A DNA stretch of 64,000 nt from Pseudomonadota bacterium (GTDB taxonomy: Bacteria; Myxococcota; JACRCW01; JAFGSX01), in contig JBDRCO010000052.1 in the NCBI GenBank assembly GCA_043821645.1, positions 64,001 through 128,000 on the forward strand, written 5' to 3'. A program made the position numbers and the translations under genes. Of the stretch, positions 1-64,000 are shown in pieces. A model generated the notes under the pieces. The model searched no databases, was not told the origin of the DNA, and was given only the letters and a program-made list of their open reading frames with translations. Numbering within the stretch: position 1 is the stretch's first letter; every line of letters begins with the position of its first letter.

Positions 1-305
1 TGGTCTATCGCGTGTCCTGGTTCTCACACCTGATCTACCGCCTGATCCTGCGCACGCCCTTCCTGTCGCTGATCAACATCATCGCGCGACGCCAGGTGAT
101 CGTGGAGTTGTGGCAGAAGGCCCTGCGTGGCGTCGAGGTGGCCGGGCAGCTGCGACGTCTGCTCGGTGGCGAGGACAGGACCAAGATGCTCGAGGCCTAC
201 GCCCAGATCCGCAACGAGCTGGGCAGGCGCGACACGGCGGCGCGCGTGGCCTCCGTCCTGATCGAGGAAGGGTCGCGCAAGACCGGGAACGTGCCCCGGA
301 CCTGA
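1..305 (+). CDS. lpxB: Lipid-A-disaccharide synthase, C-terminal fragment (5' truncated by window edge)
   Basis: Frame reads VYRVSWFSHLIYRLILRTPFLSLINIIARRQVIVELWQ...IRNELG...AARVA, matching the LpxB C-terminal pattern (VxYxV...SLxNxxA...V.xEL.Q). Confidence 0.75.
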   Translation, partial: VYRVSWFSHLIYRLILRTPFLSLINIIARRQVIVELWQKALRGVEVAGQLRRLLGGEDRTKMLEAYAQIRNELGRRDTAARVASVLIEEGSRKTGNVPRT

Positions 306-337
306 GCTTGGCTGCAGCGCCTGTCTTTCGGAAGTGC

Positions 338-2629
338 TCAGGGTGATAGCAGATCCGGCAGAGGAACCACGCCGCTGCCCAGGCGCGTGCCGTTGCGCTC
401 GAACACCGTGTCTGTTGTGACCACCACCTCCAGCGGGCCCAGGGTCCCGGGCACCGCCTCCTGCTCGCGCACCGTGCTACCATCCTGCACGTGTAGACCG
501 ACGGCATTGTCGAGGATCTCGCCCTTCGACACGGTGCCGCGGGCGGCCGCAAAGACCAGCCCCAGGCTGGCACTACGAGCGATCCGCGTGGCCACGAGAT
601 CCAGGCGTCCACTCTCGATGGCGCCCAGGCCCCAGCCGAGCTGGCCATCCACCTCCCGGGGCAGGGAATCGACGATGGTACAGCCCGTGAGCTCGGCATG
701 GCTGTCCGCCTGTCCGACGAACAGGCTGACCTCTCGGTTGCGCGCGAGCAGGCAGTCCGTGAGCAGCAAAGCGCCGCCGCTCTGCACGTTGATGCCGCGC
801 CCGAAGCTGCGGTTTCCGTCGGTCTGGGTATCCCGCACGACGCTGGCCGCCATGTTCACGACGGTCCCGGGCTCGCGCACCACCACGGCGACCTCGCGAT
901 TGAACACGATGGCGCTGTGCGAGATTTCCGCGGTCAAGCCACCGCCCAGATCGAGTCCACGGCCGAAGCTGCCGTCGACGTAGCCACGGCCCCGGGCGAT
1001 GACGGCGCCTTCCAGGGTCAGGTGCCCGGCGGGCTGGTTGTCGACGACGGAGCGGCCCGCGATCACGGCGATGCCGGCGCAGCCGATGATGGCGCTGCGG
1101 TCCAGGCTGGCCTCTGCCTGGCCTCCGAGCACCAGACCATTGCCGTCCCGGGTCGTCCCCGAGCGCCGGATGTCCGTGATCAGCGAGTCGACCAGCTGCA
1201 GGCGTGAGTTCGCATCGTAGAGCACGACGCCGTTGCCCGCGCCGCGCCCCAGCGCCGAGCGCTCGAGCTCCAGCACGCCGGTCTGCTGAACCGCCGCGCA
1301 GGTGGTTGAATCGCCGTTGGGGAAGACCTCGGTGTCAAAGACAATGCTGTCGTGCAGACGCACCACGGAACCGAGGGCGGAGACGACGGCGGCTCCGCTG
1401 GCGCGCCGGATGGAGCTGTTGTGAAGGTCGACCGTGGCATAGCCCTGGACCATGAGGTTGCGGCCAAAGTACTCGACATAGCCTCCAGGCCTGACCACAC
1501 CCACGGCGCGAGGGAGCGTGTCGCGCAGCACCGAGTCGCGCATCGTCACCTGTGTCGGCTGCGTGGCGAGCTGGCTATCCACGTAGAGCCCGCTCTCGCT
1601 GTTGCGCGCCAGCACGCAGTGGTTCAGCTCGGCGCTGGGGCCACCGCTGATGACGACGCCCATGCCAAAGGATCCGTCTCCCGCGGGAAAGGTGTCCGTG
1701 ACCACCACGCCATCGAGCGCGGCCTGCGTCCCGCCGTCCTGGATCACCACGCCAGCCTGGCGGTTGCCGACGACGGAGCTCGTCTCCATCTGCAGAGAGC
1801 CTCCCTGCTCGACGAAGACGCCGTAGCCAAAGCGGCCGCTGGCATTCGCGAGGCTGTCGCGCACCACCGACCCGCTCACCACCAGGGTGCCGCCGATCGC
1901 GCGCAAGCCGGAGATGGCGTTGCCGGTCACCACCACCTGCCGCAGCTGTAGCGTGGCGCCGGAGCGCACGATGGCGCCGTTGAAGTGCCCGCGCAGGGTC
2001 AGCCCTCGCAGCTCGCTCTGTCCGCCGAGCACCTCCACTCCTGTGATGCCGCTGTCCACGGGCGCCTGCAGGATGACCTGCTCGGCACAGCGCCCGGCCA
2101 CGGTCACGGCACCGGTGAGGCGCAAGGCCTCGACATAGGTTCCGCTCTCGACGGCGATGACGGCACCGGCGGGTGCCCGGGTCACGGCCGCGGCGATGCT
2201 CGCAAAGTGTGTGGCGTCGAGCTGCGACGCGGCATAGCTCACATCGACGAAGATCGTGGCCGCCGGGTCCAGGGGACGTTCACAGTCCCCCACCGGCTGG
2301 CACTCGATCTGACCGATGACCTCGCGGCGCGCACCGCTGCAGGGTGTTGCGGGCAACACGTCCTGGCAGCCCCAGCCGTCGCGGTCTGCGCGGGTGCCTT
2401 CGGGGCAGGATGTGGTGCCCACGGGCTGGCACTGCGCGAGGCCCAGGCGAGGCATGAAACCCGCGGGACACTCCTGGTCCGGGAGCACCGCGTCGCAGGC
2501 CAGCCCTTCCTCAACCTCGACCCAGCCCTGGGCACACCTGCTCTCGGTGGGCTCGGGTCGTGGCGGACCGGGCTGTGGACAGCTCGAGAGAAGCAGGACC
2601 GCGGGAAGCAGCAACGACAGGTCGCGCAT
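338..2629 (-). CDS. Right-handed parallel beta-helix repeat lipoprotein with Cys-rich N-terminus
   Basis: Lipobox LLLSSC, Cys-rich segment, FASIAAAV...GAVIAVESGTYVE cap, many G(R/M)G(I/L)xV..G repeats. Confidence 0.75.
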   Translation of the reverse strand: MRDLSLLLPAVLLLSSCPQPGPPRPEPTESRCAQGWVEVEEGLACDAVLPDQECPAGFMPRLGLAQCQPVGTTSCPEGTRADRDGWGCQDVLPATPCSGARREVIGQIECQPVGDCERPLDPAATIFVDVSYAASQLDATHFASIAAAVTRAPAGAVIAVESGTYVEALRLTGAVTVAGRCAEQVILQAPVDSGITGVEVLGGQSELRGLTLRGHFNGAIVRSGATLQLRQVVVTGNAISGLRAIGGTLVVSGSVVRDSLANASGRFGYGVFVEQGGSLQMETSSVVGNRQAGVVIQDGGTQAALDGVVVTDTFPAGDGSFGMGVVISGGPSAELNHCVLARNSESGLYVDSQLATQPTQVTMRDSVLRDTLPRAVGVVRPGGYVEYFGRNLMVQGYATVDLHNSSIRRASGAAVVSALGSVVRLHDSIVFDTEVFPNGDSTTCAAVQQTGVLELERSALGRGAGNGVVLYDANSRLQLVDSLITDIRRSGTTRDGNGLVLGGQAEASLDRSAIIGCAGIAVIAGRSVVDNQPAGHLTLEGAVIARGRGYVDGSFGRGLDLGGGLTAEISHSAIVFNREVAVVVREPGTVVNMAASVVRDTQTDGNRSFGRGINVQSGGALLLTDCLLARNREVSLFVGQADSHAELTGCTIVDSLPREVDGQLGWGLGAIESGRLDLVATRIARSASLGLVFAAARGTVSKGEILDNAVGLHVQDGSTVREQEAVPGTLGPLEVVVTTDTVFERNGTRLGSGVVPLPDLLSP

Positions 2630-2789: not shown

Positions 2790-3497
2790 ATGCCGCACGA
2801 TGCCGTGGTGCTGATGCCGACCTACAACGAGCGCGAGAACCTGCCGTCCATGGTGGCGGAGGTTCTGCGCACCGCACCCGTCGACATGCTGATCATCGAC
2901 GACAACTCGCCAGATGGCACAGGTTCCGTGGCCGACGCCCTGGCCGACCAGGAGCCGCGGGTGCAGGTGATGCACCGCCCGGGCAAACAGGGTCTGGGCC
3001 GCGCCTACCTCGACGGCTTTCGCTGGGCGCTGGACCAAGGCTACAAGGTCATCTTCGAGATGGATGCGGACTTCTCGCACCAGCCTCGCTACCTCCCGGA
3101 GTTCCTGCGCGAGATCAAGCACTACGACCTCGTCCTCGGCTCCCGCTATGTCCGCGACGGAGGCGTGTCCAACTGGCCTCTGCACCGCCAGGTCATCAGC
3201 CGGGGCGGCAGCCTGTATGCCCGCTCCATCCTCGGGGTGACGGTCAAGGACCTGACCGGCGGTTTCAAGTGCTTCAGGCGCGAGGTGCTCGAGAGCCTGA
3301 ACCTCGACGGTATCCGCTCCACCGGTTACGCCTTTCAGATCGAGATGACCTACCGCACGCTGCAGGCGGGCTTCAAGGTCAAGGAGATCCCCATCATCTT
3401 CTACGAGCGCAACGCGGGGAAATCCAAGATGAGCCGCAAGATCTTCGTCGAGGCCATAGGCACCGTGTGGAAGCTCAAGCTGGGCGGGCCTGTGTGA
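2790..3497 (+). CDS. Polyprenol monophosphomannose synthase (GT2, DPM1/Ppm1-like)
   Basis: LMPTYNERENL, IIDDNSPDGTG, GLGRAY, EMDADFSHQP, GSRY, DLTGGFKCFRR, GYAFQIE. ATG at 2790. Confidence 0.9.
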   Translation: MPHDAVVLMPTYNERENLPSMVAEVLRTAPVDMLIIDDNSPDGTGSVADALADQEPRVQVMHRPGKQGLGRAYLDGFRWALDQGYKVIFEMDADFSHQPRYLPEFLREIKHYDLVLGSRYVRDGGVSNWPLHRQVISRGGSLYARSILGVTVKDLTGGFKCFRREVLESLNLDGIRSTGYAFQIEMTYRTLQAGFKVKEIPIIFYERNAGKSKMSRKIFVEAIGTVWKLKLGGPV

Positions 3498-4978
3498 GTT
3501 CGACGGGGGAGGGCACCTCGGGTGCAGCGCGCGCTGGCCGCATCGCCGGTCCTCTGGGTGGCCTCGCGATTCTGCTGCTGGTTCACGTCGTCACCGGTGC
3601 GGTACCTCCGGCGGCCCGCGTCGCTGCTCTGGCGTTCACCATGGCCGTGCTGTGGATGACAGAGGCCATCCCCCTGGCTGCGACGGCCTTGTTCCCGCTG
3701 GTGGCGTTCCCTCTCCTTGGCATCACGAACACGTCGGGCGTGGCCACCGCCTACGCCGATCCCGCCATCTTTCTGTTCCTGGGAGGCTTCTTGCTCGCCC
3801 GCTGCGTCGAGGACAGCGGATTGCACCGGCGCATCGCGGTGGCGGTGCTGGGCGCCCTGGGCGATAGACCCCGACGCCAGGTCCTGGGCTTCATGATCAC
3901 CTCGGCACTGCTGTCTATGTGGATCTCAAACACTGCTACCGCCCTGGTCCTGCTTCCCGTGGCCCTGGCCGTGGCCGCGCCCGTCATCGCGAACGACGCC
4001 GAGCGGGGTCGGGTGTTCGCCACCTCGCTGCTCCTCGGAGTGGCCTACGGCGCATCCATCGGTGGAGTGGGCACTCCCGTGGGGAGCCCTCCCAACGTGA
4101 TCTTCCTGTCACAGCTCGCGGCCGCCTTCCCCGAGCAGCGCATTGGCTTTGCGCGCTGGCTCCTGGTCGGGTTGCCCTTCGTCGCCCTGTTCGTACCCGT
4201 GGCGGCCTGGTGGTTGTGCCGTCCGCTGGGCACGGATCCCTTGCCGGGTTGCCGCGAGGTGCTGGCCTCGCAGCGCGCCGGGCAGGGACGCATGGACCGC
4301 GATCAGTGGATCGTGGCTGCGCTTTTTGCGACGGCGGCCCTGGGCTGGGTGTTCCGGGCGCCCATCGTCGTGGGCAGCGTCGAGATCCCGGGGTGGTCGA
4401 GCCTGGTCGGCGGCTCAGCAGCGGTGCACGACGCGGTGGTGGCGGTGGGCGTGGCGCTGATCGCGTTCTTCGTGCCGTCGTCGCAGCGGCCTGGTCAGCG
4501 ACTGCTCACCTGGGCCAGCGCCTCGCGCATCGCCTGGGGGCTTCTGATCCTTTTCGGTGGCGGCATCGCCCTGGCGCGCGGCTTCAGCCTAAGTGGTCTG
4601 TCCTCGACCCTGGGCGGGCTGTTTGCAGGACTCCAGGGCGTACCCCTGATCCTTGTGATCGCGGCGATCACGACGCTGGTCATCTTCCTGACCGAGCTGA
4701 CCAGCAACACCGCGACGACCACGGTGATGATGCCCATCCTGGCCTCGCTGGCCCTGGCCCTGCAGGTTCCTGCGGTAGCGATCATGTTGCCGGCCGCCAT
4801 CGCCGCGAGCTGCGCCTTCATGCTGCCGGTGGCCACGCCACCCAATGCCGTGGTCTTCAGCAGCGGGCAGGTGCCACTGCGTGACATGATGCGCGCCGGC
4901 TTCTTTCTCAACCTGATCGGCGTGGTCCTCATCACCCTGCTGGCGCTGGGGCCAGGGCGCTGGCTCGTCACCCCGTAG
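3494..4978 (+). CDS. DASS/SLC13 family sodium:dicarboxylate/sulfate symporter
   Basis: WMTEAIP, LSMWISNTAT, GGVGTPVGSPPN, TELTSNTAT, AFMLPVATPPNA. GTGA start overlaps the upstream stop. Confidence 0.9.
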   Translation: MSSTGEGTSGAARAGRIAGPLGGLAILLLVHVVTGAVPPAARVAALAFTMAVLWMTEAIPLAATALFPLVAFPLLGITNTSGVATAYADPAIFLFLGGFLLARCVEDSGLHRRIAVAVLGALGDRPRRQVLGFMITSALLSMWISNTATALVLLPVALAVAAPVIANDAERGRVFATSLLLGVAYGASIGGVGTPVGSPPNVIFLSQLAAAFPEQRIGFARWLLVGLPFVALFVPVAAWWLCRPLGTDPLPGCREVLASQRAGQGRMDRDQWIVAALFATAALGWVFRAPIVVGSVEIPGWSSLVGGSAAVHDAVVAVGVALIAFFVPSSQRPGQRLLTWASASRIAWGLLILFGGGIALARGFSLSGLSSTLGGLFAGLQGVPLILVIAAITTLVIFLTELTSNTATTTVMMPILASLALALQVPAVAIMLPAAIAASCAFMLPVATPPNAVVFSSGQVPLRDMMRAGFFLNLIGVVLITLLALGPGRWLVTP

Positions 4979-5000
4979 TGGCGACGAGAGGAGAGCATCG

Positions 5001-5720
5001 ATGCGACCGTGCCTGATCCTGCGCGCCGCCCCACAGGCGCTCATGTCGTTGCTGCTGGCGCTGCCCCAGACTGCCTCCGCGAGCCCCCCGCCCAGCAGCC
5101 AGCCCGCGCGTGGCGTCGAGCTGGACCTGGCCGCGCATCCCGAGCTGGTGGACATGCAGTCGCTGATTCCGGACCTCCAGCTCGATATCAAGTACGCCAC
5201 CACCGACAACTTCACCGGCCAGAACCTATACGGAGATTTCCGGCGCTGTGTGCTGCACCGCGAGGCAGCGGATCGGCTTCTCGAGGCAGATCGCTGGCTC
5301 CGGCAGCACCACCCGGAGCTGCGCCTGCTGGTCCATGACTGTCTCAGACCGCGCTCGGTGCAGTGGCGCATGTGGAATGTGGTGAAGGGCACGCCCATGC
5401 AGGGCTACGTCGCGGATCCCAGCACGCGCACAGGATCGCTTCACAACTATGGCGTGGCGGTGGACCTGAGTCTGGCCGGGGTCGAGGGCACGCCCGTCGA
5501 CATGGGCACCCCCTATGATTTTCTGGGCAAGAAAGCCGAACCGAGACACGAGAACCGTTTTCTCGCCGACGGCACCTTGAGTCCCGAGCAGGTACGCAAC
5601 CGGCTGATCCTGCGAACGGCCATGGTGCACGCCGGTTTCCGGCCCATCAACAGTGAGTGGTGGCACTTCGAGGCGATGTCCGCACGCCAGGTCCACAAGC
5701 GCGCACGTCTCGTCGAGTGA
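5001..5720 (+). CDS. D-alanyl-D-alanine dipeptidase (peptidase M15D, VanX/DdpX family), likely exported
   Basis: KYATTDNFTG, DCLRP, SLHNYGVAVD (SxHxxGxAxD), EWWHF; N-terminal signal-like segment. Confidence 0.88.
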   Translation: MRPCLILRAAPQALMSLLLALPQTASASPPPSSQPARGVELDLAAHPELVDMQSLIPDLQLDIKYATTDNFTGQNLYGDFRRCVLHREAADRLLEADRWLRQHHPELRLLVHDCLRPRSVQWRMWNVVKGTPMQGYVADPSTRTGSLHNYGVAVDLSLAGVEGTPVDMGTPYDFLGKKAEPRHENRFLADGTLSPEQVRNRLILRTAMVHAGFRPINSEWWHFEAMSARQVHKRARLVE

Positions 5721-5753
5721 GTGGCCCCCGGGCGACAGGCCCGGTGAATCAGT

Positions 5754-6710
5754 TCAGCGCGTCGCGGCCGCCGCGACCTGGGTCAAAGCCATGTCGAGCT
5801 GTTCATAGCTTTCGAACAGTCGGGCGTCGCTCCCGGAGAGGTCGAACCAGTCGCTCGAGGGAACACCGATCCAGGTCGTCACCTGGCTCGCCATCCGGCG
5901 CAGGCTCTGGCTCAGAGCGAGCCGCTCGTCAGACCCCAGATCTCGTACCACCGACAGCAGCAACAGGTGCGCGTGTGTTGTCTCAACGGCGCGCAGGATC
6001 TCCTCCTCGGGCAGGTTGGGGCCCAGGTAGATGGGCTCGAGCCCGCGACTGGCCGCCAGAATGGCGCCGACCAGCGTACCGAACTCGTGCAGGTGTCCCG
6101 CCGGGGTGGTGACGACGATCTTGGGAGCTCCGGGCTGCGGTGTGCTCCAGTTGAGCACCGAGGTCAGCAGGCCGCGCATCTGCGCCGACACCAGGTGTTC
6201 GTGCGCGATGCTGACCTCGCGTCGGTGCCAGCGCTCCCCCACTTCGAGCAGGATGGGCCGCACCACCTGCAGGGCGAGGTCCTCTGCCCGCAGCAGCATG
6301 GCGGCGCGGCTGAGCAGATCCGCCGCGCGGCGAACATCGAAACGTTCGATGGCCTCGAGATAGTCCGAGCGCACGCGGGCGTAGCTGCGATCGGCATCTG
6401 TGGAACCGTCCGCGGCGGTCCCGCTCTCGTCGTCGAGTTCGGCAAGCAGGGCCTCGAGTCTGGCATTCTCGAGGGCCGCCACGTCCATGATGTGGTGACC
6501 GCGCAAGGTCAGTTCTCGCAGCAAGGAGAGCCGATGGATGTCCAGCGACGAGAACTTTCGCGTGTTGCCGTCGGTGCGGTGGGGCTCCACGGCGGCATAG
6601 CGCTGCTCCCATTTGCGAATTGTGTCCGCGGAGAGCCCGGTGAGTCGGGTCGCGACTCGCATCGAGTAGGTGGCTTGCTCGCCTGCCTTTTCTAGTCTCG
6701 AAGAAGACAT
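5754..6710 (-). CDS. MerR-family regulator with cobalamin-binding domain (CarH/CarA/LitR-like)
   Basis: MerR HTH (TGLSADTIRKWEQRY...RTDGNTRKFS), W-x9-EH motif (WHRREVSIAHEH), HxHEFG B12 ligand motif, YLGPNLP. Confidence 0.85.
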   Translation of the reverse strand: MSSSRLEKAGEQATYSMRVATRLTGLSADTIRKWEQRYAAVEPHRTDGNTRKFSSLDIHRLSLLRELTLRGHHIMDVAALENARLEALLAELDDESGTAADGSTDADRSYARVRSDYLEAIERFDVRRAADLLSRAAMLLRAEDLALQVVRPILLEVGERWHRREVSIAHEHLVSAQMRGLLTSVLNWSTPQPGAPKIVVTTPAGHLHEFGTLVGAILAASRGLEPIYLGPNLPEEEILRAVETTHAHLLLLSVVRDLGSDERLALSQSLRRMASQVTTWIGVPSSDWFDLSGSDARLFESYEQLDMALTQVAAAATR

Positions 6711-6854
6711 GTCAAGATCCTGTCGCGATGTTGCCCTGGAACAATATAGACAGTTTCTTGTCCCGTGCAGTCGAGATCGGACCTGACCTGAGCTGCAGGC
6801 GCCTGTCGGCTCCCGGAGAGAGGTCGCGCTGGTACCATACAGAGGGGAGGGAGC

Positions 6855-55636: not shown

Positions 55637-55668
55637 GCGCAGGGCTTCACCAAGCGATGGAGAGAGCG

Positions 55669-58395
55669 ATGAAGAGGCTCATTCACGGAGTGATGGTTCT
55701 GGCGCCCCTCGCGATGCTCCTGTGGAGCGCGAACGCCCAAGCAGTCACCCAGACCGGGCAGGTCACGGGCTATGTCTCCGACCAGTCCGGCATGCCGGTA
55801 CCCGACGTTCGCATCGAGGTCGCCGGCGAGAACCTCATCGGTGGCAAGCGCAGCACGACCACCAACGAGGACGGCGAGTTCCGGTTCTTGCAGCTGCCGC
55901 CAGGTATGTACAAGGTGGTGGCGACGCACGAGCTATACCGGCGCGTGACGATGGACAAGGTCGCGGTGCAGATCAACCGCACGGCCAGCGTCGACATCGT
56001 GCTCGAGCCGCCGGTGGCCGCCGAGGCCGAGGCTTACGTGGTCAAGGGCACGGTGCCGGTGGTCGATGTCGAGCGAACCACCCTGGGCAATTCAGTGTCC
56101 GCGAGTTTCACCGAGACCATCCCCACCAGCCGCGACTACCAGGGCATGGCCCAGCTGGTCCCGGGCGTGGTGGGTGGCGCCAACCCGAACGTGCATGGCG
56201 CGACCCTGTACGGCAACCAGTACTTCCTTGACGGCATCAACATCACCGACCCGGTGACCAACACCTTCAGCGCCAACTTCAACTTCGATGCCATCCAGGA
56301 AGTCGAGGTCCTCACCGGCGTGCTGGACGCCGAATATGGCAGCGCCCAGGGCGGCATCATCAACATCGTCACCAAGAGCGGCGGAAACGAGTTCACCGCC
56401 GACGCCTCGATCTACTACTCTTCCGCCTACCTGCAATGGCGTGAGAAGGGCGAGGAAGAACTCAACAACCAGATGCTTCAGCTCTCCCTCAACGTGGGCG
56501 GGCCCATCATCAAGGACAGGCTGTGGTTCTTTGTCTCCGGTGAGGTGCCCTGGGCCATCCAGACCCTTCCGCCCACCGCGGCCACCAGCGACATCTTCCC
56601 GGATCAGGCAGGCAAGCTGCACCCTTCGCGCGACTTCCGGGCCTTTTATGGTCTGGCCAAGCTGACCTGGCAGCCCTTCAGCAACCAGACCTTCAAGTTC
56701 TTGCTGCAGGGCGACCCCACCACCATCTACAACGAGGGGCAGAGTCCATCCATCCATCCCGACGCCGAGACCCAGCGCTACCAGGGTGGCGTCATCGCGT
56801 CGGTGGCCAGCGAGACCTTCGTGTTGCCCGAGCTGTTCCTGAACAACCGCCTGGCCTACACCCACGGCCGCTTGTTCATCTATCCGCAGTCCAATGACTT
56901 CGATACCCCGGGGCGCGGCAACACGGCCACCGGCACGGCCACGGTCAACGATACCACCTGGCTCGACGACAATCGCTACCGCGTGCAATTGCACTCGTCG
57001 GCCACCTATACCCTGGACAACCTCATCGGCGAGCACCAGTTCAAGGCTGGCGTCGACGCGTCCCTGACCATCAACACGGTGTTCGACTCGCTGCCCGGCG
57101 GTGGTTCCTACACCGACAATGGCCTGGACCCGACCAACCCGAACTCTGCGTCGGGCGCCGGTCTGCCGTATCAATACACGCGCCTCATCGAATCCCAGGA
57201 CACCGTCATCTATGGCGACACCGTCAGCGTGTTCGTCCAGGACAAGTGGAAGCCCTTCCCCTCGCTGACCGTGCGTCCAGGCCTGCGCATGGACTCCGCG
57301 CGCATGCGCAACTTCGAGGGCGTCGCCCAGGTCCAGATCAACACCCTGAGCCCGCGCCTCGCCGTCAGTTGGGATCCCTTCGACGACAACAAGACCGCTC
57401 TGCGCGCCGGTTACGGCCAGTACGTGGACACGGGCTACCTGGCGCTGTCGGATTTTGCCGGCGGCAAGGGCAAGCTCACCCATACCTACGAGTACAACCC
57501 CATCACGGAAGAGTACGACATCTACCTGTACGAGGAAGGTGGAGCCAACGGCGTCGAGGGCAAGGACTACCTCAAGGACATGTTCGACCAGCGCCGTCCC
57601 CGCGTGCACGAGCTCAACCTCGGCGTGAGCCGTGAACTCATCACCGACCTCGGCTTCAGCGCGGACTTCATCTATCGCTTCTACGGCAACCAGTGGGAGG
57701 ACGACGAGATCAACGCCCAGTGGAACGAGGATGGCGACGCGGTCATCGGTTTCAACAACGGCGAGCAGAAGTACATCTACAGCCTGGGTGCCCTCGACGA
57801 GGCCTTCATTCGTTACTATGGCTTCGAGTTCGCCCTGAACAAGCGCTTCAGCTCCAACTGGGAAATGATGGCCTCCTACACTTGGTCGTGGACCGAGGGG
57901 ACAGAGCCCAGCATCATCAGCGTTGCGTTCGATCGCCCGCGCCAGCGGGAATATGAGTTCGGCTTCCTGCCCCAGGATGTCCGCCACGTGCTCAAGATCT
58001 ACGGCAGCTACCGCCTGCCCTACGGCTTCGTGGTCGGCGGACGCGTGCGCTACCAGTCCGGCGGTCCGTACAACCGCTATTACTTCAACAGCTTCTACAG
58101 CGACTACGAGGACCGACGCGCACCCCGCGGCTTCGATCGCCAGGACGACGGGACACTGGTCGAGCTGCGCTACCCCGACACCTTCACGGTCAACGCGCGC
58201 GTGACGTGGCAGCTACAGGAGCTGACGGGCCAGAAGCTCGACCTGATCTGCGAGGTGTTCAACCTGCTCAACGCGCGGACACCAGCGGGCTACGAGACCC
58301 GGAACCTGCCGGCTGGCGGCGCCACCCAGTTCGGCGACGTCACGGACAAGCTCGATCCACTCAACGTGCAGCTGGGTCTCCGGTACCGTTTCTAG
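55669..58395 (+). CDS. TonB-dependent outer-membrane receptor, Oar-like (N-terminal carboxypeptidase-regulatory-like domain)
   Basis: Signal peptide, G.V.DQSG.PVP...TTNEDGEFRF..LPPG.Y, plug (NQYFLDGINITD, AEYG.AQGGIINIVTKSG.N), FVQDKW, SPRL, ends LRYRF. Alternative start 55657. Confidence 0.9.
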   Translation: MKRLIHGVMVLAPLAMLLWSANAQAVTQTGQVTGYVSDQSGMPVPDVRIEVAGENLIGGKRSTTTNEDGEFRFLQLPPGMYKVVATHELYRRVTMDKVAVQINRTASVDIVLEPPVAAEAEAYVVKGTVPVVDVERTTLGNSVSASFTETIPTSRDYQGMAQLVPGVVGGANPNVHGATLYGNQYFLDGINITDPVTNTFSANFNFDAIQEVEVLTGVLDAEYGSAQGGIINIVTKSGGNEFTADASIYYSSAYLQWREKGEEELNNQMLQLSLNVGGPIIKDRLWFFVSGEVPWAIQTLPPTAATSDIFPDQAGKLHPSRDFRAFYGLAKLTWQPFSNQTFKFLLQGDPTTIYNEGQSPSIHPDAETQRYQGGVIASVASETFVLPELFLNNRLAYTHGRLFIYPQSNDFDTPGRGNTATGTATVNDTTWLDDNRYRVQLHSSATYTLDNLIGEHQFKAGVDASLTINTVFDSLPGGGSYTDNGLDPTNPNSASGAGLPYQYTRLIESQDTVIYGDTVSVFVQDKWKPFPSLTVRPGLRMDSARMRNFEGVAQVQINTLSPRLAVSWDPFDDNKTALRAGYGQYVDTGYLALSDFAGGKGKLTHTYEYNPITEEYDIYLYEEGGANGVEGKDYLKDMFDQRRPRVHELNLGVSRELITDLGFSADFIYRFYGNQWEDDEINAQWNEDGDAVIGFNNGEQKYIYSLGALDEAFIRYYGFEFALNKRFSSNWEMMASYTWSWTEGTEPSIISVAFDRPRQREYEFGFLPQDVRHVLKIYGSYRLPYGFVVGGRVRYQSGGPYNRYYFNSFYSDYEDRRAPRGFDRQDDGTLVELRYPDTFTVNARVTWQLQELTGQKLDLICEVFNLLNARTPAGYETRNLPAGGATQFGDVTDKLDPLNVQLGLRYRF

Positions 58396-58396
58396 T

Positions 58397-58442
58397 TCTC
58401 TCCGGGCCTGGCTACGGGTCCTGCCCAGGTGCCCGATAGAGA
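58397..58442 (+). other. Imperfect intergenic hairpin (possible mRNA stabiliser or attenuator)
   Basis: TCTCT/AGAGA, CGGGC/GCCCG and CTGG/CCAG arms directly after the receptor stop; no U-tract. Confidence 0.35.
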
Positions 58443-58526
58443 CCGGTACGTGCACGACCCTTCGGGCCTGCTAGAATAGAGAAGAGGCCTGTGGCGGATG
58501 CTGCGGGGCCGTGCCGTGGGTGCAGG

Positions 58527-59285
58527 ATGTTTGAGGGCTTCGTCGAGCAGCGACACGAGACCGGCCTGTTGCGGCGGCTGGCAGCGTTCTCGCTATCGAC
58601 GGGTCTGCACATTGGCCTGGTTGCGCTGATCCTGTTTCTCTCGGTCAAGGTCGCCGAGAGTGCCGCGGACGAGGAAGTGCCGGTGCTGTTCTATGCACCA
58701 CCCCCCCCGCCACCGCCTCCTCCACCACCACCCAAGGTCACCAAGGTCAAGAAGGTCAAGACCAGGCCCACCGAGATCGTCCAGCCCAAGGTCGAGGAGA
58801 TCAGACCCGTGGAGCCCGAGCTAGAGCCCGAGCCAGAACCCGAGCCAGAACCCGAGCCGGTGAATGACGAGGACGGCGAGGAAGGTGGCGTCGAGGGCGG
58901 CGTGGTGGGTGGCGTCGTGGGAGGTGTGGTCGGTGGGGTGGTCGGTGGGGTGCTTGGTGGCCAGCTCGGTGGTCAGCTCCCGCCACCCGACGAGCCGGTG
59001 CGTCTGAAGAAGGGCATGACTCCGCCCAAGGTCGTGGCCTCCACCATGGCAGAGCCCGAGTACCCGCGTATGCTTCGAGAGGCGCGTGTCGAGGGACGCG
59101 TCATGCTGCTCATCGCGGTCAAGCGGGATGGCAGCGTCGGTGAGGTTCAGGTCCGCAGTGGCAACTCTGCCCTGGCCAAGGCTGCGGTCGAAGCGATCAA
59201 GAAATGGCGATTCAAACCCGCCATGTACAACGGGCAGCCGATTGCCGTATGGCTGCCCTATCCCTTCGTGTTCAAGCTGGAGTAA
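58527..59285 (+). CDS. tonB: Energy transducer TonB
   Basis: TM with S-x3-H (STGLH), poly-Pro, (EP)n and GGVV repeats, C-terminal PEYP...VEGRV...WRFKPA. Confidence 0.9.
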   Translation: MFEGFVEQRHETGLLRRLAAFSLSTGLHIGLVALILFLSVKVAESAADEEVPVLFYAPPPPPPPPPPPPKVTKVKKVKTRPTEIVQPKVEEIRPVEPELEPEPEPEPEPEPVNDEDGEEGGVEGGVVGGVVGGVVGGVVGGVLGGQLGGQLPPPDEPVRLKKGMTPPKVVASTMAEPEYPRMLREARVEGRVMLLIAVKRDGSVGEVQVRSGNSALAKAAVEAIKKWRFKPAMYNGQPIAVWLPYPFVFKLE

Positions 59286-59451
59286 TGTGCCGAGCGGAGA
59301 GTGAGGACGCACGGCTCGCCCGTGCGTCGACCCGTGAGCCTTCTGCCCCGCATCCCACCCGCCGAGCTTCCTCGCCGGGCTCCAGGTGTCGCAGGCAGCG
59401 CCAGATCCGGGACGTCACACTGGACGTGCCCGATCGCGTCAGGAGCGTCAG

Positions 59452-60141
59452 ATGGAATTCAGTCTGGTTCACATGTGGGAGACGATGGGCACCATCGCCA
59501 AGACGGTGGTGTATGTCCTGCTGTTCATGAGCGTGGGTACCATCGGCATCGCCATCGAGCGGCTCATTGCCTTCGTGCGAGCCTCGGGGCAGTCCACCAA
59601 GTTCGCCCTCGACATCCGCTCCGCGCTCGACGGGCGCGACTTCGCGCGGGTGGGTGAGCGCCAGGGGCTGTACAAGCAGTCTCCCCTGGCCCAGGTCGTC
59701 GGCAGCGGTGTCTCCGAGTACAACAAGGCGCTGCAGGCGCGCGGCGCGGGGGCGACTTACGAGGCCGTCGCGGCGGCGCAGAGAGCCAGCGAGCGCAGCA
59801 TCGACGTCGAGCTGACCAGGCTGCGGCGCGGACTCGGAGTCCTCGCCACGGTTGGGTCGACCGCGCCCTTCGTCGGTCTGTTTGGCACGGTGTTCGGCAT
59901 CATCAACGCGTTCCAGGCCATGGGTGAGGGGCAGGGCGATCTGGCGACCATCGGACCCGGCATCGCCGAGGCTCTGGTGACGACGGCGTTCGGCATCCTG
60001 GTGGCCATCATTGGGGTGTGGTTCTACAACGCCTACACCGCTCGTGTGGATGCCGTGGGTGGGGCTCTGATCACGGCCAAGAACGAGATCGTGGACTACT
60101 TCATCAAGGACGAGGGCAGGGCCCAGCATACGGCCGCCTAG
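59452..60141 (+). CDS. exbB: MotA/TolQ/ExbB proton channel protein
   Basis: LATVGSTAPFVGLFGTVFGIINAF, GIAEALVTTAFG. Confidence 0.9.
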   Translation: MEFSLVHMWETMGTIAKTVVYVLLFMSVGTIGIAIERLIAFVRASGQSTKFALDIRSALDGRDFARVGERQGLYKQSPLAQVVGSGVSEYNKALQARGAGATYEAVAAAQRASERSIDVELTRLRRGLGVLATVGSTAPFVGLFGTVFGIINAFQAMGEGQGDLATIGPGIAEALVTTAFGILVAIIGVWFYNAYTARVDAVGGALITAKNEIVDYFIKDEGRAQHTAA

Positions 60142-60160
60142 GTCCGAGGAGATTGCGCAG

Positions 60161-60577
<417 letters not shown>

Positions 60578-60603
60578 GCCGCCAGGAGAAGGATCCCAGG
60601 ACT

Positions 60604-61062
60604 ATGGCGATGCAGATCGGCAGCAAGGGCATTCAGTCCGAGATCAACGTCACGCCGCTCATCGACGTGGTGCTGGTGCTGCTCATCATCTTCATGGTGG
60701 TCGTGCCCCTGGTCGAGCGCCGTTTCATCCTCGCCGTTCCCGAGAAGGACCTTCCTCAGGAGGAGCTTCCCGAAGACAGCCCGAAGCCGCTGCTGGTCAT
60801 GCTGGAGGCGGACGGCTCGGTCAAGCTGAACGACCAGGTCCTGCCCATGGAGCAGCTCCTGGACAAGTTGCACACCGTGCTCAGGCGTCGCGACGAGAAG
60901 GTGGTGTTCTTCGACGCTGCGAAGAGCGCCAACTACGGACAGGCCGTGGACGTGATGGACGCCTGTCGTGGCGTCGGAGCCCGGCACATCGGCATCATCG
61001 ATCCGGCAGCTGTTGCCGGCGAGTTGCCCGAAGCCCCGGTCGAAGCTCTACCCTCACCCTGA
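60604..61062 (+). CDS. exbD: Biopolymer transport protein ExbD/TolR (second paralog)
   Basis: EINVTPLIDVVLVLLIIFMV. Confidence 0.9.
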   Translation: MAMQIGSKGIQSEINVTPLIDVVLVLLIIFMVVVPLVERRFILAVPEKDLPQEELPEDSPKPLLVMLEADGSVKLNDQVLPMEQLLDKLHTVLRRRDEKVVFFDAAKSANYGQAVDVMDACRGVGARHIGIIDPAAVAGELPEAPVEALPSP

Positions 61063-62394
61063 CGCGTGCTCGCCTGCACAGCCCATCCAGGGGTCGCGTC
61101 CACGGATGCCGCCGGAGGCCATGGCGCGGGCCCGGCACGCTCCCGCGCAGGTGACAAGATCGTCGCAGGCTGCGCAGGACGCGCCCGGTTCAAGTTGACG
61201 CCACATTGTCACCGCCGGCGACTCCGCCCAGCACTCGGTCAGGGTGTGATGGTGCAGGCTCCAGGCATTGTCCGGGCGCAGGCTTCCGCAGCCGAGCACG
61301 CGTCCGTCGTGGGTCACGGTCGCAGTGGTGGTTCCAGCGATACAGCCGAAGCCCGGCGACACCCCGAGCCAGGCCGGGGCGCGTGTCGGAATGCCGTCGG
61401 ACAGATCCGCAGGACAGCTGGTCTCGGGCCAGGCGTCGCGAACCCGTTTTACGACGCGCTGCCAGTGCCGACGCGGCACCACCAGATCGTGCGCCGCGCT
61501 CGCCTCGCCGAGCTGCGAGAAGGGCTTGAACACCACGCGGTGCACCCCCAGGCGGGTGGCCAGGGGTGCGAATTCCAGCAAGCGATTCGCGACGGCAGGT
61601 GTCACCGTGACCCGCAGCTTGACGTCGTGCGCGCCCGCCGCGATCAGGTGCGCGATGCCGCGCATGGCACGATCGAACTGACCCCGGCCGCGCAGGCGGT
61701 CATGGCTCTCGGCATCGGGCCCGTCGAGGGAAATGGAGTAGCCGCGCAGCGGACTTGCCGCGAGCTGGCGCGCCCTGGTCTCGTCGACGAGTGTGGCGTT
61801 GGTGCACAGCCAGGCATCCAGCTGGTGCTGGGCCAGGCCATCCAGAACACGTTCGAGGTCCGGTCGCAGCAGTGGCTCGCCACCGGCCAGGACCAGCAGC
61901 GGGGCGCCGAGTTGCTTCAGCTCTGCAAACAGCTCGGACCAGCGCGCGGCCGGTAACTCGTCGCGCGCAGGCGAGGCGACCACGTCCATGTAGCAGTGTG
62001 CACAGCGCAGATTGCAGGCGCGGGTCAGCTCCACGTGGGTGACCAGGGGAGCCGTGAGAGCCGGATGTGTCCGCGGTGTGTCGACGACCTGCGCCGTGCA
62101 GCGAAAGCCCGCGTCGAGCATCCCCTCCCGCCGCCAGCTCGCCACCAGAAGCGAAAAGGCCTGGTCGTCGAGCCCGGGGACGCCTCCCTGGCGCGCGTAC
62201 TGCGTCAGGATGCTCTCCTGCGTCGAGCTTGCCAGGAGGATGGCTGGACCCGGCGGGATCGCCTCGGTGCTGCAGTCGGAACGTCTGTACCACAGGGCGC
62301 CAAAACGCTCCTTGCGCAGGACGTCAGGGGCAGTCGATGGCGAGGGATGACTTGGGGTGGCCAGATCCGAGGCGCAGGTGCGGGCAGAGACCAT
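61054..62394 (-). CDS. Radical SAM/SPASM maturase with N-terminal RRE-like domain
   Basis: CNLRCAHC, GGEPLL, ISLDG; SPASM C-x12-G-x4-C...CxxC-x5-C-x3-C...C; N-terminal LRKERFGALWY resembles MftB/PqqD-type RRE. Confidence 0.88.
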   Translation of the reverse strand: MVSARTCASDLATPSHPSPSTAPDVLRKERFGALWYRRSDCSTEAIPPGPAILLASSTQESILTQYARQGGVPGLDDQAFSLLVASWRREGMLDAGFRCTAQVVDTPRTHPALTAPLVTHVELTRACNLRCAHCYMDVVASPARDELPAARWSELFAELKQLGAPLLVLAGGEPLLRPDLERVLDGLAQHQLDAWLCTNATLVDETRARQLAASPLRGYSISLDGPDAESHDRLRGRGQFDRAMRGIAHLIAAGAHDVKLRVTVTPAVANRLLEFAPLATRLGVHRVVFKPFSQLGEASAAHDLVVPRRHWQRVVKRVRDAWPETSCPADLSDGIPTRAPAWLGVSPGFGCIAGTTTATVTHDGRVLGCGSLRPDNAWSLHHHTLTECWAESPAVTMWRQLEPGASCAACDDLVTCAGACRARAMASGGIRGRDPWMGCAGEHASG

Positions 62395-63317
62395 CAGCAG
62401 CCGGAGCTCACCTTCTTGAAATCCGGATCGCCGAGCTGCTCCACACCGGGCAGGTCCTTGCCCGCGAGGTAGTGACCCTGGTACTCGCCACCCAGTCTGG
62501 CCTCGATCTCGGCCTTCTTGCGCGCGGCGAAGCCCGCCAGATCGTCCGTCCCCAGGAGCTTGCCGACCTCGCGGTCGCTCAGGTGCTGGTCTCCGGTGAC
62601 CAGGCGCGAGAACAGTGGAATGTGACGCAGGAAGTGGGTCTCGGCGTTCTTGAGGCGCTCGTCCATGTCCCAGATGTCGACGCCGGCTGGCTGGCTCGCG
62701 AGGTCCCGATAGGCCCAGGTGATCGCCTCGGCACCGGTCATCGTGGCAGCGTGCTGGCTCGCCTTGCGCGTGATGTTCACGTCCAGGTTCTTGCGCCCAT
62801 CGATGTCACGGCTCACCTTGCTGAGAGCATCGTTCCAGGCGCTCATCTCGGTGCGGAAGGACTCCAGGGAGCCATCCACCGCTGCGTCGGCGAGCTTTCC
62901 GGACAGCCCCTGCAGGCGATCCGAGGCCTCGGCCTCCTTGCGATCGAGGCGCCCGTCGCCATTCTTGTCCAGTGCGCGCACCTCCTGCTTGGCCGCAAGC
63001 AGAGCACTCATCACGTTCTGGACCTCACCTGAATCCAGCTTCTTGGGATCGACCTGCACGCTGCGCGTCGACGTTCCACCTGAACAGCCGGCAGGAACGC
63101 TTCGCTCCTCGGTGCGTGCAAAGCTGTCCTTGATGGCCTCCAGGCTCCTGTCCAGGGCCCGGTCGCCCGTCGCCTCGACCGCGTGCTCCAGCTTCTCCAC
63201 GTCGACAGAACCGTCTGCGGAGCGCGCGGTCTTGATGGCATCCCCCAGCCGGTCGAGGGTCTTGTCCAGGTCGCGGGGCACCACCGCGGGCATGTCGGGC
63301 TTGCGGATCGAGGTCAT
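62394..63317 (-). CDS. Hypothetical helical protein with EF-hand loop, ending in SSGC
   Basis: RBS AAGGAG; canonical 12-residue loop DKNGDGRLDRKE; no signal peptide; stop overlaps the rSAM start. Confidence 0.75.
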   Translation of the reverse strand: MTSIRKPDMPAVVPRDLDKTLDRLGDAIKTARSADGSVDVEKLEHAVEATGDRALDRSLEAIKDSFARTEERSVPAGCSGGTSTRSVQVDPKKLDSGEVQNVMSALLAAKQEVRALDKNGDGRLDRKEAEASDRLQGLSGKLADAAVDGSLESFRTEMSAWNDALSKVSRDIDGRKNLDVNITRKASQHAATMTGAEAITWAYRDLASQPAGVDIWDMDERLKNAETHFLRHIPLFSRLVTGDQHLSDREVGKLLGTDDLAGFAARKKAEIEARLGGEYQGHYLAGKDLPGVEQLGDPDFKKVSSGC

Positions 63318-63428
63318 TTTGGAACTCCTTGGGAAGATGAGGCGCTGCTCATCCTATCTGGAATCGTCTGAATTTGGGCGAGATCTGGCTCCAAGGTGCT
63401 TGCCGTCCTGGAGGTCCTGCCAGGCCGC

Positions 63429-63947
63429 TCACTGCCCGATGAACTTGCACCAGCCCCGGCAGCGCGCCCGGGACTTGTCGCAGTTATCAAAACAGCCAGC
63501 GCAGGTGTGGGAATCCCCGGGCGAGGTGGTGCAGGCGTCGCCGCAAGCGCTCGCCTGGCGGTCGCAATCGCGGCGGCAGTCGCTCTGGTCGGTGCCGTCG
63601 CGCTCCTGGTGCTCCCGGTTGGTGCCGTCGAGGCAGGCGCGGATGGACGCGCTATCCGAGGCCGCATCGCCCTGGCAGCTCAAGCCCGCCAGGCACTCGG
63701 CGCCCTCGGCCTTCCATTCCTGGCACTGCTCCAGGCACACGGCCAGATCCAGCTCGCGGCCAGACTCGGCGTCGCGGCAACCGCGGGGCGTTCCATCCGG
63801 TGCCTGGGCCACGCTGTCCGCGCGGAGTCCGCACGCCTCGACCACCACCTCGCAGGCCTTGTCGCAGGGGCCCGTGCAGGCCCATCCCCAGAGGCACAGG
63901 AACCCGACGCTCACGGCGACACCAAGGCTGAGCAGGCGTGCGTGCAT
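63429..63947 (-). CDS. Cys-rich lipoprotein (20 Cys in 172 aa)
   Basis: Signal with lipobox candidate WGWAC; repeated CxxxC motifs. Confidence 0.65.
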   Translation of the reverse strand: MHARLLSLGVAVSVGFLCLWGWACTGPCDKACEVVVEACGLRADSVAQAPDGTPRGCRDAESGRELDLAVCLEQCQEWKAEGAECLAGLSCQGDAASDSASIRACLDGTNREHQERDGTDQSDCRRDCDRQASACGDACTTSPGDSHTCAGCFDNCDKSRARCRGWCKFIGQ

Positions 63948-63953
63948 GTGGGC

Positions 63954-64000
63954 TCAGTCCAACAGGCCAGCGGGGTTGACGTCGACGGTGAAGGTCGTGG
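63954..64000 (-). CDS. 3' end of a gene truncated by the window; tail resembles the PriA C-terminus
   Basis: Reads ...TTFTVDVNPAGLLD*, similar to the PriA xxDVDP tail; only 15 codons visible. Confidence 0.3.
   Translation of the reverse strand, partial: TTFTVDVNPAGLLD

Follow-up and report, generated by a model that had tools for sequence, protein, structure and literature searches.

Two adjacent genes in a 64,000-nucleotide stretch of DNA from a Pseudomonadota bacterium (GenBank assembly GCA_043821645.1, contig JBDRCO010000052.1, positions 64,001 to 128,000; hereafter the window) probably form an enzyme-substrate cassette. The first gene encodes a protein of 307 amino acids (aa), hereafter the partner, and the second gene encodes a 446-aa radical S-adenosylmethionine (rSAM) enzyme with a SPASM domain and a predicted N-terminal RRE, the recognition element of peptides that are made on ribosomes and modified after translation (RiPPs). 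Judged from sequence comparisons and structural models, the RRE-rSAM-SPASM enzyme would modify the 307-aa protein. A preliminary description of this DNA, made from the letters alone, had proposed that the full-size partner is modified at its V-x-x-G-C sites and, as far as computation goes, this proposal is supported.

The forward-strand letters catca at the gene junction read TGATG on the coding strand, which means that the stop codon of the partner gene overlaps the ATG of the rSAM gene by one base, as had been claimed from the letters before (Table 1). An overlap or a tight spacing was seen again at other loci; for instance, the genes of locus L002 overlap and those of locus L004 are 7 bases apart. 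The pairing of the rSAM enzyme with its partner is more than chance because the pair, both Cys motifs and the overlap or close spacing recur across the family.

The occurrence of the Cys motifs is linked to the presence of the enzyme. In a sample of 401 genomes from this phylum, 18 were hit by the partner profile, including the source genome, and 21 distinct loci were compared (L004, the single locus obtained in a separate contig scan with the partner alignment, duplicates L008, and L022 duplicates L002). An rSAM gene adjoins all 12 loci that encode a partner with a Cys in its beta-hairpin (L001-L007, L009, L010, L012, L014, L016), whereas it is found within flanks of roughly 1.5 kb at none of the nine loci encoding a Cys-free homologue (L011, L013, L015, L017-L021, L023); since the loci and sequences come from related genomes and are not independent, 12/12 versus 0/9 overstates the statistical weight. 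Thus, the Cys motifs are conserved in homologues and linked to the rSAM gene, which the preliminary description had set as a check of its proposal. Ten of the 12 hairpin-Cys partners also end in Cys, CG or CPG. The partners of L009 and L016 have the hairpin Cys and the rSAM enzyme in the absence of a C-terminal Cys, which by sequence makes the internal Cys at the hairpin tip the core site. The pattern is similar in the family sequences spanning the N-terminal module; of these 94, 61 possess both Cys residues, 10 only that of the hairpin, one only that of the terminus and 22 neither; some of the ten hairpin-only sequences are short and possibly fragments. The EF-hand-type loop is retained in the Cys-free homologues, in which the hairpin region has degenerated or is lacking.

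When the search was turned round and started from the rSAM profile, 43 of the 401 genomes matched at E ≤1e-60. The top tier of these matches (at least 390 bits; the next score is 306 bits) comprises 12 places in nine genomes, and the partner adjoins 11 of them. Moreover, the context of 12 loci was surveyed over 17-18 kb each. The only families common to at least three of these loci are the partner (12), the rSAM enzyme (11) and alternative-frame open reading frames (ORFs) lying over them. No peptidase or protease, no exporter or transporter and no further tailoring gene is conserved among the 12 loci, and the same is true for mftD/E/F-like, qhp and tetrapyrrole genes. The one context locus lacking an rSAM gene encodes a Cys-free paralogue in genome G034 (contig C24). 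As far as searched, the pair is restricted to Myxococcota. Genome G034 also offers a natural control pair: its contig C16 carries a Cys-bearing partner without a C-terminal Cys together with an rSAM gene, and its contig C24 (L033, G034:C24:47000-64000; also L023) carries the Cys-free paralogue with no rSAM gene nearby.

The 446-aa enzyme belongs to the radical SAM superfamily, as it possesses the CX3CX2C motif and a score above the cut-off for the Pfam model Radical_SAM (PF04055; residues 121-266, E 4.3e-21, 76.2 bits versus a cut-off of 29.5). The C-terminal part contains the seven Cys residues of a SPASM region; members of this subgroup have a pattern of seven or eight Cys residues there, which binds auxiliary clusters. 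C351, C369, C416 and C420 are invariant in 39 homologues and C407 and C410 are nearly so, C439 being the exception. The Pfam model SPASM covers residues 351-411 below its cut-off (E 0.009, 16.7 bits versus 21.5). The sole relative of the enzyme by sequence in the PDB is PqqE (E 1.5e-14), and the SPASM Cys residues of PqqE align with C351, C369, C407, C410, C420 and C439. Taken together, the Cys pattern, the PqqE alignment and the modelled fold, which matches SuiB, PqqE and anSME through about residue 439, assign the enzyme to the SPASM subgroup. The preliminary description was therefore right about a seven-Cys SPASM domain, since all seven can be read from the sequence and six are conserved in the homologues, and it was also right about the segment LRKERFGALWY, which spans residues 26-36.

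The same description had interpreted the N-terminus as an RRE, and here the outcome is divided. The AlphaFold2 model of the enzyme, which was computed with 39 homologues, has a predicted local distance difference test (pLDDT) score of 92.6 and a predicted template modelling (pTM) score of 0.91, and the modelled N-terminus has the beta3-alpha3 topology of RiPP recognition elements. Structural alignment with VIA-align superposes the model on SuiB (5v1t_A) with a Z score of 31.4 and a root-mean-square deviation of 3.5 over 394 aligned residues (model 21..439, chain 5..439). As the superposition starts at residue 21 of the model and residue 5 of the chain, it takes in the N-terminal domain of SuiB, which is an RRE. 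The alignment with SkfB (6efn; Z 29.5) likewise covers residues 22..431 of the model. The alignments with PqqE (Z 25.4), anSME (Z 24.6) and CteB (5why_B; Z 24.0) begin at the rSAM core, at the model residues 111, 115 and 111, respectively. The sequence identity of the enzyme to SuiB, SkfB and CteB is 16-18%. Thus, the RRE assignment stands at the level of the fold and fails at that of the sequence: Pfam does not recognise the domain as PqqD, and the NCBIfam model MftB (TIGR03967) matches residues 26-39 only below its threshold (E 0.058, 13.7 bits versus 33).

The enzyme does not fit into a curated family. Among the best 25 of 71 NCBIfam matches, no model reaches its cut-off. The nearest models are AhbD (TIGR04545; E 1.9e-40, 139.3 bits versus a cut-off of 500), which matches in two stretches within residues 121-318 only, and MftC (TIGR03962; E 4.2e-38, 131.4 bits versus 265), which covers residues 112-428. 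NirJ and NirJ2 are also among the top matches. The cut-offs of the sactipeptide and ranthipeptide models StsB (NF045574; 106.5 bits versus 625) and PapB (NF047865; 56.5 bits versus 340) are not reached either. By sequence and model, the enzyme is therefore best described as an RRE-rSAM-SPASM protein outside every curated family tested, with MftC and AhbD as its nearest models. The named public records among 38 close homologues (E ≤1e-40) say only 'radical SAM protein'. A scan of metagenome contigs with the rSAM alignment returned 80 loci, all of which are 25-38% identical and represent other rSAM families. The predicted complex of the enzyme and its partner gave ipSAE scores of 0.00 and 0.01 (mark 0.32), which speaks neither for nor against binding.

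The partner contains exactly two Cys residues, and the preliminary description correctly placed them in like contexts: C78 stands in RSVPAGCSGG and C307, the last residue of the ORF, in KKVSSGC. In the 48 sequences of the Cys-bearing clade, C78 is invariant (48/48), and it is preceded by Gly or Ser in 41 and followed by Gly or Ser in 46 of them. At the terminal site, C307 is present in 46/48, Gly or Ser at position 306 in 35/48 and Ser or Thr at position 305 in 34/48 sequences. Directly before the terminal motif, the residues DPDF (297-300) are conserved (D 42, P 40, D 42 and F 27 of 48). At the other end of the protein, the N-terminal peptide is characterised by K6 (46/48), P7 (48/48), F9 (33/48) and P10 (35/48). 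The AlphaFold2 model of the partner, which is based on the 48 Cys-clade sequences (pLDDT 92.5, pTM 0.81), is helical except for one beta-hairpin with the strands 68-76 and 81-89. C78 is located in the turn at the tip of this hairpin, around which the pLDDT is about 89 and the sequence is conserved on both sides. The last seven residues of the model are coil.

An EF-hand loop at residues 117-128 had been predicted as well. Taking an EF-hand to be a loop of 12 residues with the pattern D-x-[DN]-x-[DN]-G-x-[ILV]-x-x-x-E between helices and with a Pfam score above the cut-off, the loop pattern was confirmed and the Pfam EF-hand models gave weak matches (E 0.0046-0.032, 14-18 bits) that stay below their cut-offs of 25-30 bits. 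In the model, the loop is flanked by helices 96-116 and 126-134, and its characteristic positions are conserved (D117 41/48, N/D119 39/48, D121 41/48, G122 36/48, I/L124 46/48, E128 48/48). No family could be attributed to the partner. There is no Pfam or NCBIfam family above the cut-off, a Foldseek search of the PDB gave sorcin and other EF-hand proteins at best (E 0.063) and no fold match, and VIA-align against 48,161 chains reached a Z score of 6.0, which is within the stated noise range of the tool. Similarly, a sequence profile search of the PDB returned calmodulin-type loops only (E 0.0024 or weaker) and the ESM Atlas nothing at 0.9 or above. A weak Pfam match to DUF7463 (E 0.01) was dropped because 11 other family members do not reproduce it; the term 'DUF7463' appears in no paper of the literature searched. 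A word-indexed search identified seven proteins, including the partner itself and one named record from a metagenome-assembled genome of Myxococcota (the record of locus L004), and when 1.84 billion cluster representatives were scanned in full with HMMER, 134 relatives were obtained at E ≤0.001, of which 99 were at E ≤1e-10. A metagenome contig scan with the partner alignment returned no relative. By eye, no signal peptide could be seen on the partner.

The sequence motif itself is shared by the internal and the terminal positions. Logos were drawn from 76 internal and 63 terminal sites, and both show Val or Tyr at position -4 relative to the Cys, Ser or Thr at -3, Ser, Gly or Thr at -2 and Gly or Ser at -1, and the internal sites continue with Gly or Ser at both +1 and +2. 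The regular expression used for the logos missed some sites, including PAGC of the window's own partner, and the logos thus represent a sample. In some members of the family, the motif is repeated in tandem or the module is doubled. Furthermore, there are short partner forms of about 125-220 aa, which correspond to no more than the N-terminal module and nevertheless have ...GTSC or a similar sequence as their end.

The source genome contains four such systems. The system of the window (C52) and those of contigs C138 and C37 belong to the same rSAM clade, and that of contig C3 belongs to a sister clade. A tree of 33 rSAM enzymes from these loci, which was calculated with IQ-TREE leaving out L055 (partial), L059 and L062, is divided into three clades, each with a support of 100/99. 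Clade 1 holds the enzyme of the window, and its partners are of the long or short form. Two partner types occur in clade 2, one of whose enzymes matches MftC better than that of the window does and is still below the cut-off (E 1.1e-55, 189.2 bits versus 265). One type consists of short N-terminal modules with tails, such as the C3 protein ending in RPVSSGCSGGSTPAPVRSGC. The other type is rich in Lys and Pro, roughly 75-130 aa long and carries 2-5 copies of [RK]-x-P-V-[AS]-T-G-C-G together with a terminal ...RTGC. Overall, the short partners of clade 2 have 1-5 motif copies and a terminal ...TGC. A motif-bearing partner was found at 10 of the 13 clade 2 loci examined; L043 is cut by the end of its contig, and L054 and L067 have none. 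In clade 3 (L052, L053, L056-L063), which comes from genomes of about 8-12 Mb (in most cases 9-12 Mb), the proteins are again RRE-rSAM-SPASM enzymes, and all ten loci encode an upstream protein of about 200 aa with [HS]-C-E-V-P-A-G-C-G-G near the N-terminus and a non-Cys end. None of the partner types of clades 1-3 belongs to a Pfam or NCBIfam family. From the sequences, the substrate family also takes in the forms of about 125-220 aa and the sister-clade repeat peptides with the same motif.

The clade 2 system of the source genome (L064, G000:C3:257000-266000, 3095..4977, minus strand) consists of the rSAM gene followed by a gene for a protein of about 150 aa. This protein combines a VTTGCS hairpin motif and the EF-type loop IDANQDGEIGYGE with the tail ending in RPVSSGCSGGSTPAPVRSGC.

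How the enzyme could act on its partner may be outlined as follows. The enzyme would dock on the substrate via the RRE, in the long forms perhaps on the N-terminal peptide M-P-x-I-x-K-P-x-F-P, and would act on a short motif in extended form, V/Y(-4)-x-S/T(-2)-G(-1)-C(0). This motif would be presented once at the tip of the beta-hairpin inserted in the EF-hand-like helical module (C78) and once at the C-terminus (C307). The alternation of V(-4), S/T(-2) and C(0) suggests binding as an extended strand with one face directed to the enzyme. Since only upstream residues are common to the sites, which are followed by Gly-Gly or by the end of the chain, a bulky residue behind the Cys is probably not accepted by the active site, and the pocket on this side may be tight. 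The data show the pairing of the genes, the conservation of the motifs and their co-variation with the enzyme, the RRE-type fold and the predicted position of the hairpin, and from these we infer docking, the abstraction of a hydrogen atom by the enzyme, the product and any dependence on Ca2+. Once modified, the partner seems to remain an intracellular protein because no signal peptide is apparent by eye and neither a protease nor an exporter gene is conserved nearby.

With regard to the product, we tentatively prefer a thioether of the sactionine or ranthionine type, in which the sulfur of the motif Cys would be linked to a carbon of an upstream residue of the motif. With such bonds, the hairpin tip and the tail would each bear a small covalent ring. 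Three arguments favour it by analogy. The rSAM/SPASM enzymes with an obligatory Cys in their target motif that we are aware of make thioethers, and AlbA is one of them. In anSME, an extra upstream Cys completes the auxiliary cluster I, whereas the corresponding open iron site of CteB binds the substrate thiolate; the enzyme of the window lacks the extra upstream Cys of anSME, and a seven-Cys SPASM domain of this kind would leave an iron site open for the thiolate of the substrate. Finally, the two copies of the motif have nothing in common beyond the residues upstream of the Cys. QhpD, PapB, CteB and CrpC have been named as makers of thioethers (PMC13692751).

The preliminary description had also listed results that would speak against its proposal, namely homologues of the partner that lack the Cys motifs or are not linked to the rSAM gene, and an N-terminus that is no RRE; none of these computational outcomes was obtained. 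However, several observations weigh against the cassette or the preferred thioether chemistry. Besides the relatedness of the compared genomes, the first 112 residues of the enzyme match no Pfam model at E values up to 10, including PqqD (PF05402). One rSAM enzyme of the top tier, that of contig G029:C203, has no partner that could be found nearby, and one family member, P0007, has the terminal Cys without the hairpin Cys. Moreover, the nearest curated families by score, AhbD and MftC, are oxidative decarboxylases and not thioether synthases. Of the 48 Cys-clade sequences, 46 have the Cys as their final residue, and its free carboxylate could matter, as in a decarboxylation of the MftC type. 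Finally, the neighbour of the clade 2 enzyme at L067 carries NTGYG repeats with Tyr where the motif has Cys, which might indicate that the attack takes place on residue 0 itself; only one such case was seen, and a homologue of this protein in L054 lacks the tail.

The last three points would fit an alternative in which enzyme and substrate are the same and the chemistry is different. The enzyme would then abstract the C-beta hydrogen of the motif Cys itself, which would give a thioaldehyde or a formylglycine-type residue at the internal site, as with anSME, and an oxidative decarboxylation to an aminovinyl-thiol-type end at the terminal Cys, as with MftC on a C-terminal Tyr. The reaction of MftC is a precedent, since the enzyme oxidatively decarboxylates the C-terminal Tyr of MftA together with the RRE protein MftB (PMC8728441). 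The weak MftB match of the N-terminal segment and the fold match with anSME would be in line with it. However, decarboxylation is impossible at the internal site, and it is this site that tracks the rSAM gene most strictly, as L009 and L016 illustrate. Furthermore, anSME recognises C/S-x-P/A-x-R, which is absent from the partner, the scores are far under the family cut-offs (for MftC about half of it) and no mftD/E/F-like genes are conserved nearby. We therefore regard C-beta chemistry as rather unlikely.

The two further alternatives question the role of the partner. The 307-aa protein could be an oversized precursor of a RiPP or cofactor, with the N-terminal module as a leader and the tail or the hairpin being cut out as for mycofactocin or pyrroloquinoline quinone (PQQ). 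The resemblance of the enzyme to MftC and PqqE would suit such a precursor, as would the conserved DPDF before the tail, which could mark a processing site, and the sister-clade partners, whose 2-5 near-identical V-S-T-G-C-G repeats with Pro/Lys-rich spacers look like multiple cores. However, the lack of a conserved protease or exporter in the vicinity makes the release of a small product less likely, and tailoring genes are equally missing among the 12 loci. The internal site, moreover, lies inside a confidently modelled fold with conserved flanks, and the existence of Cys-free homologues without an rSAM gene indicates that the scaffold has a function of its own; a precursor role is thus quite improbable. 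Even less credit can be given to the idea that the partner is no substrate at all and serves as a Ca2+-responsive accessory protein or regulator of an rSAM enzyme acting on a small molecule, e.g. a tetrapyrrole as AhbD and NirJ do. The presence of AhbD, NirJ and NirJ2 among the top NCBIfam matches and the conserved EF-hand-type loop could be explained in this way. However, the RRE-type peptide-docking domain of the enzyme and the fact that the Cys motifs come and go together with the rSAM gene make a non-substrate role of the partner unlikely, and neither the multiplication of the motif in the sister-clade partners nor the lack of conserved tetrapyrrole genes fits it; we consider it very improbable.

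An enzyme-substrate cassette remains the preferred reading, and it may be viewed, by analogy, as RiPP-like maturation at the scale of a protein, akin to the systems QhpD/QhpC and CrpC/CrpA and in outline to MftB/MftC. The likeness to the mycofactocin system would lie in an rSAM/SPASM enzyme that uses an RRE and acts at the extreme C-terminus of its substrate, and among the curated models MftC ranks first or second for the enzymes of the window and the sister clade. In contrast to mycofactocin, where the RRE is a separate protein, the predicted RRE is fused to the enzyme of the window, and the MftC scores of 131 and 189 bits for the two enzymes stay below the cut-off of 265. MftA is a peptide of roughly 30 aa ending in Val-Tyr, whereas the substrate of the window would be a folded 307-aa protein, which ends in Gly-Cys and has an internal site in addition. 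As only the partner and the rSAM enzyme are conserved at the 12 loci, the cassette is not a mycofactocin system, which would have an MftA peptide and mftB/D/E/F genes in its surroundings.

QhpD likewise is an RRE-using rSAM/SPASM enzyme that modifies the Cys residues of a protein that remains a protein, QhpC, the gamma subunit of quinohemoprotein amine dehydrogenase. QhpD is reported to install three thioethers between Cys and Asp or Glu (PMC13692751). In contrast, the enzyme of the window exceeds no QhpD cut-off among its best 25 NCBIfam matches, there are no qhp genes nearby, and the partner is no dehydrogenase subunit and has a V-x-x-G-C motif without a conserved acidic acceptor. CrpC of Methanococcus voltae has been described recently (ACS Bio Med Chem Au 2026) as a SPASM rSAM enzyme with a predicted RRE, which forms ranthionine links on the large, adjacently encoded protein CrpA (PMC13692751). 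By this description, and not by sequence, CrpC/CrpA resembles the cassette in that a SPASM rSAM enzyme with a predicted RRE is encoded beside a large protein. However, CrpA is described as cysteine-rich and archaeal (PMC13692751), whereas the partner described here is myxobacterial and has two Cys in 307 residues, both in a defined motif.

The best fold matches, SuiB, SkfB and CteB, are RRE-rSAM-SPASM maturases of RiPPs with solved structures, and they differ from the enzyme of the window in that their substrates are short peptides. SuiB makes a Lys-Trp C-C link and needs no Cys. The anaerobic sulfatase maturase anSME is similar in being an rSAM/SPASM protein that acts on a single Cys in a short motif of a full-size protein. 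However, it has no RRE, its alignment begins at residue 115 of the model, and the partner in the window is not a sulfatase, as it matches no sulfatase family; in place of the anSME motif, the sites read S-V-P-A-G-C-S-G-G and K-V-S-S-G-C-end. A literature search covering freely accessible papers, with subscription-only papers and supplements outside its reach, found no paper describing the gene pair.

To our knowledge, rSAM/SPASM maturases are known mainly from short RiPP peptides, and the proven cases of full-size proteins as substrates are few, namely anSME, QhpD and CrpC (2026). The cassette could serve as a compact test case because it consists of two genes, a substrate with two Cys residues and a five-residue motif at the tip of a hairpin and at the end of the chain. 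It also offers natural Cys-free paralogues as controls and sister systems that multiply the motif in short peptides. Once worked out, the product would extend the enzyme family by either a post-translational modification or a class of substrates that is new, and it would give the first functional handle on an unannotated Myxococcota family with a conserved EF-hand-type loop. It is doubtful, although conceivable, that the Cys chemistry is new to radical SAM enzymes acting on proteins and that it equips a cytoplasmic EF-hand-type protein with a new cofactor derived from the protein or with a new metal site. Chemistry directed by this motif would then be common to a whole myxobacterial family, whose members range from multi-repeat peptides to proteins of 300 aa. 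As an example, the terminal Cys could undergo an MftC-like oxidative decarboxylation while the Cys at the hairpin tip is subject to C-beta oxidation or ring closure.

Table 1 Features of the gene pair (positions in the window; residue numbers refer to the encoded protein)
Feature	Position	Strand	Remarks
Partner (presumed substrate) gene	62394..63317	-	307 aa (ORF list); helical, one beta-hairpin, EF-hand-type loop, two Cys motifs
N-terminal peptide M-P-x-I-x-K-P-x-F-P, residues 1-10	63288..63317	-	conserved; candidate RRE-binding element
Internal motif R-S-V-P-A-G-C-S-G-G, residues 72-81	63075..63104	-	C78 codon 63084..63086
EF-hand-type loop DKNGDGRLDRKE, residues 117-128	62934..62969	-	fits the loop pattern
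C-terminal motif K-K-V-S-S-G-C, residues 301-307	62397..62417	-	C307 is the final residue
TGATG overlap of partner stop codon and rSAM start codon	62392..62396	-	forward-strand letters catca
RRE-rSAM-SPASM enzyme gene	61054..62394	-	446 aa (ORF list)
N-terminal RRE-type domain, about residues 21-105	62080..62334	-	strands 25-29, 32-37, 42-46; helices 48-56, 62-68, 77-89 (AlphaFold2)
Radical SAM motif C127-x3-C131-x2-C134	61993..62016	-	invariant in 39 sequences; inside the PF04055 match
SPASM region, seven Cys	61078..61344	-	C351, C369, C407-x2-C410-x5-C416-x3-C420, C439

At L065 (G029:C203:11000-19237), the clade 1 rSAM gene without a neighbouring partner (5415..6809, plus strand, 533 bits) stands in 8 kb of sequence in which neither the motif nor the profile detected a partner. 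At L067 (G072:C53:19000-27000), a gene for a Cys-free helical protein (4871..5905, minus strand) converges on the clade 2 rSAM gene, and the tail of this protein reads ...VNTGYGIAPKPAESRINTGYGVQRTPVRDGYGS.

In the window, a scan of positions 60900-64000 for promoters and terminators found nothing. An ORF of 172 aa (63429..63947, minus strand) lies 111 bases upstream of the partner gene. Its product has a hydrophobic N-terminus and about 26 Cys residues and matches neither Pfam nor NCBIfam. This Cys-rich ORF was rejected as a member of the system because it is not conserved at the other loci. On the other side, ORFs of the plus strand (55657..61062) converge on the rSAM gene. Judged by eye, their products resemble a TonB-dependent receptor of 912 aa, a Pro-rich TonB-like protein of 264 aa, an ExbB/TolQ-like protein of 251 aa and a pair of ExbD-like proteins of 138 and 152 aa.

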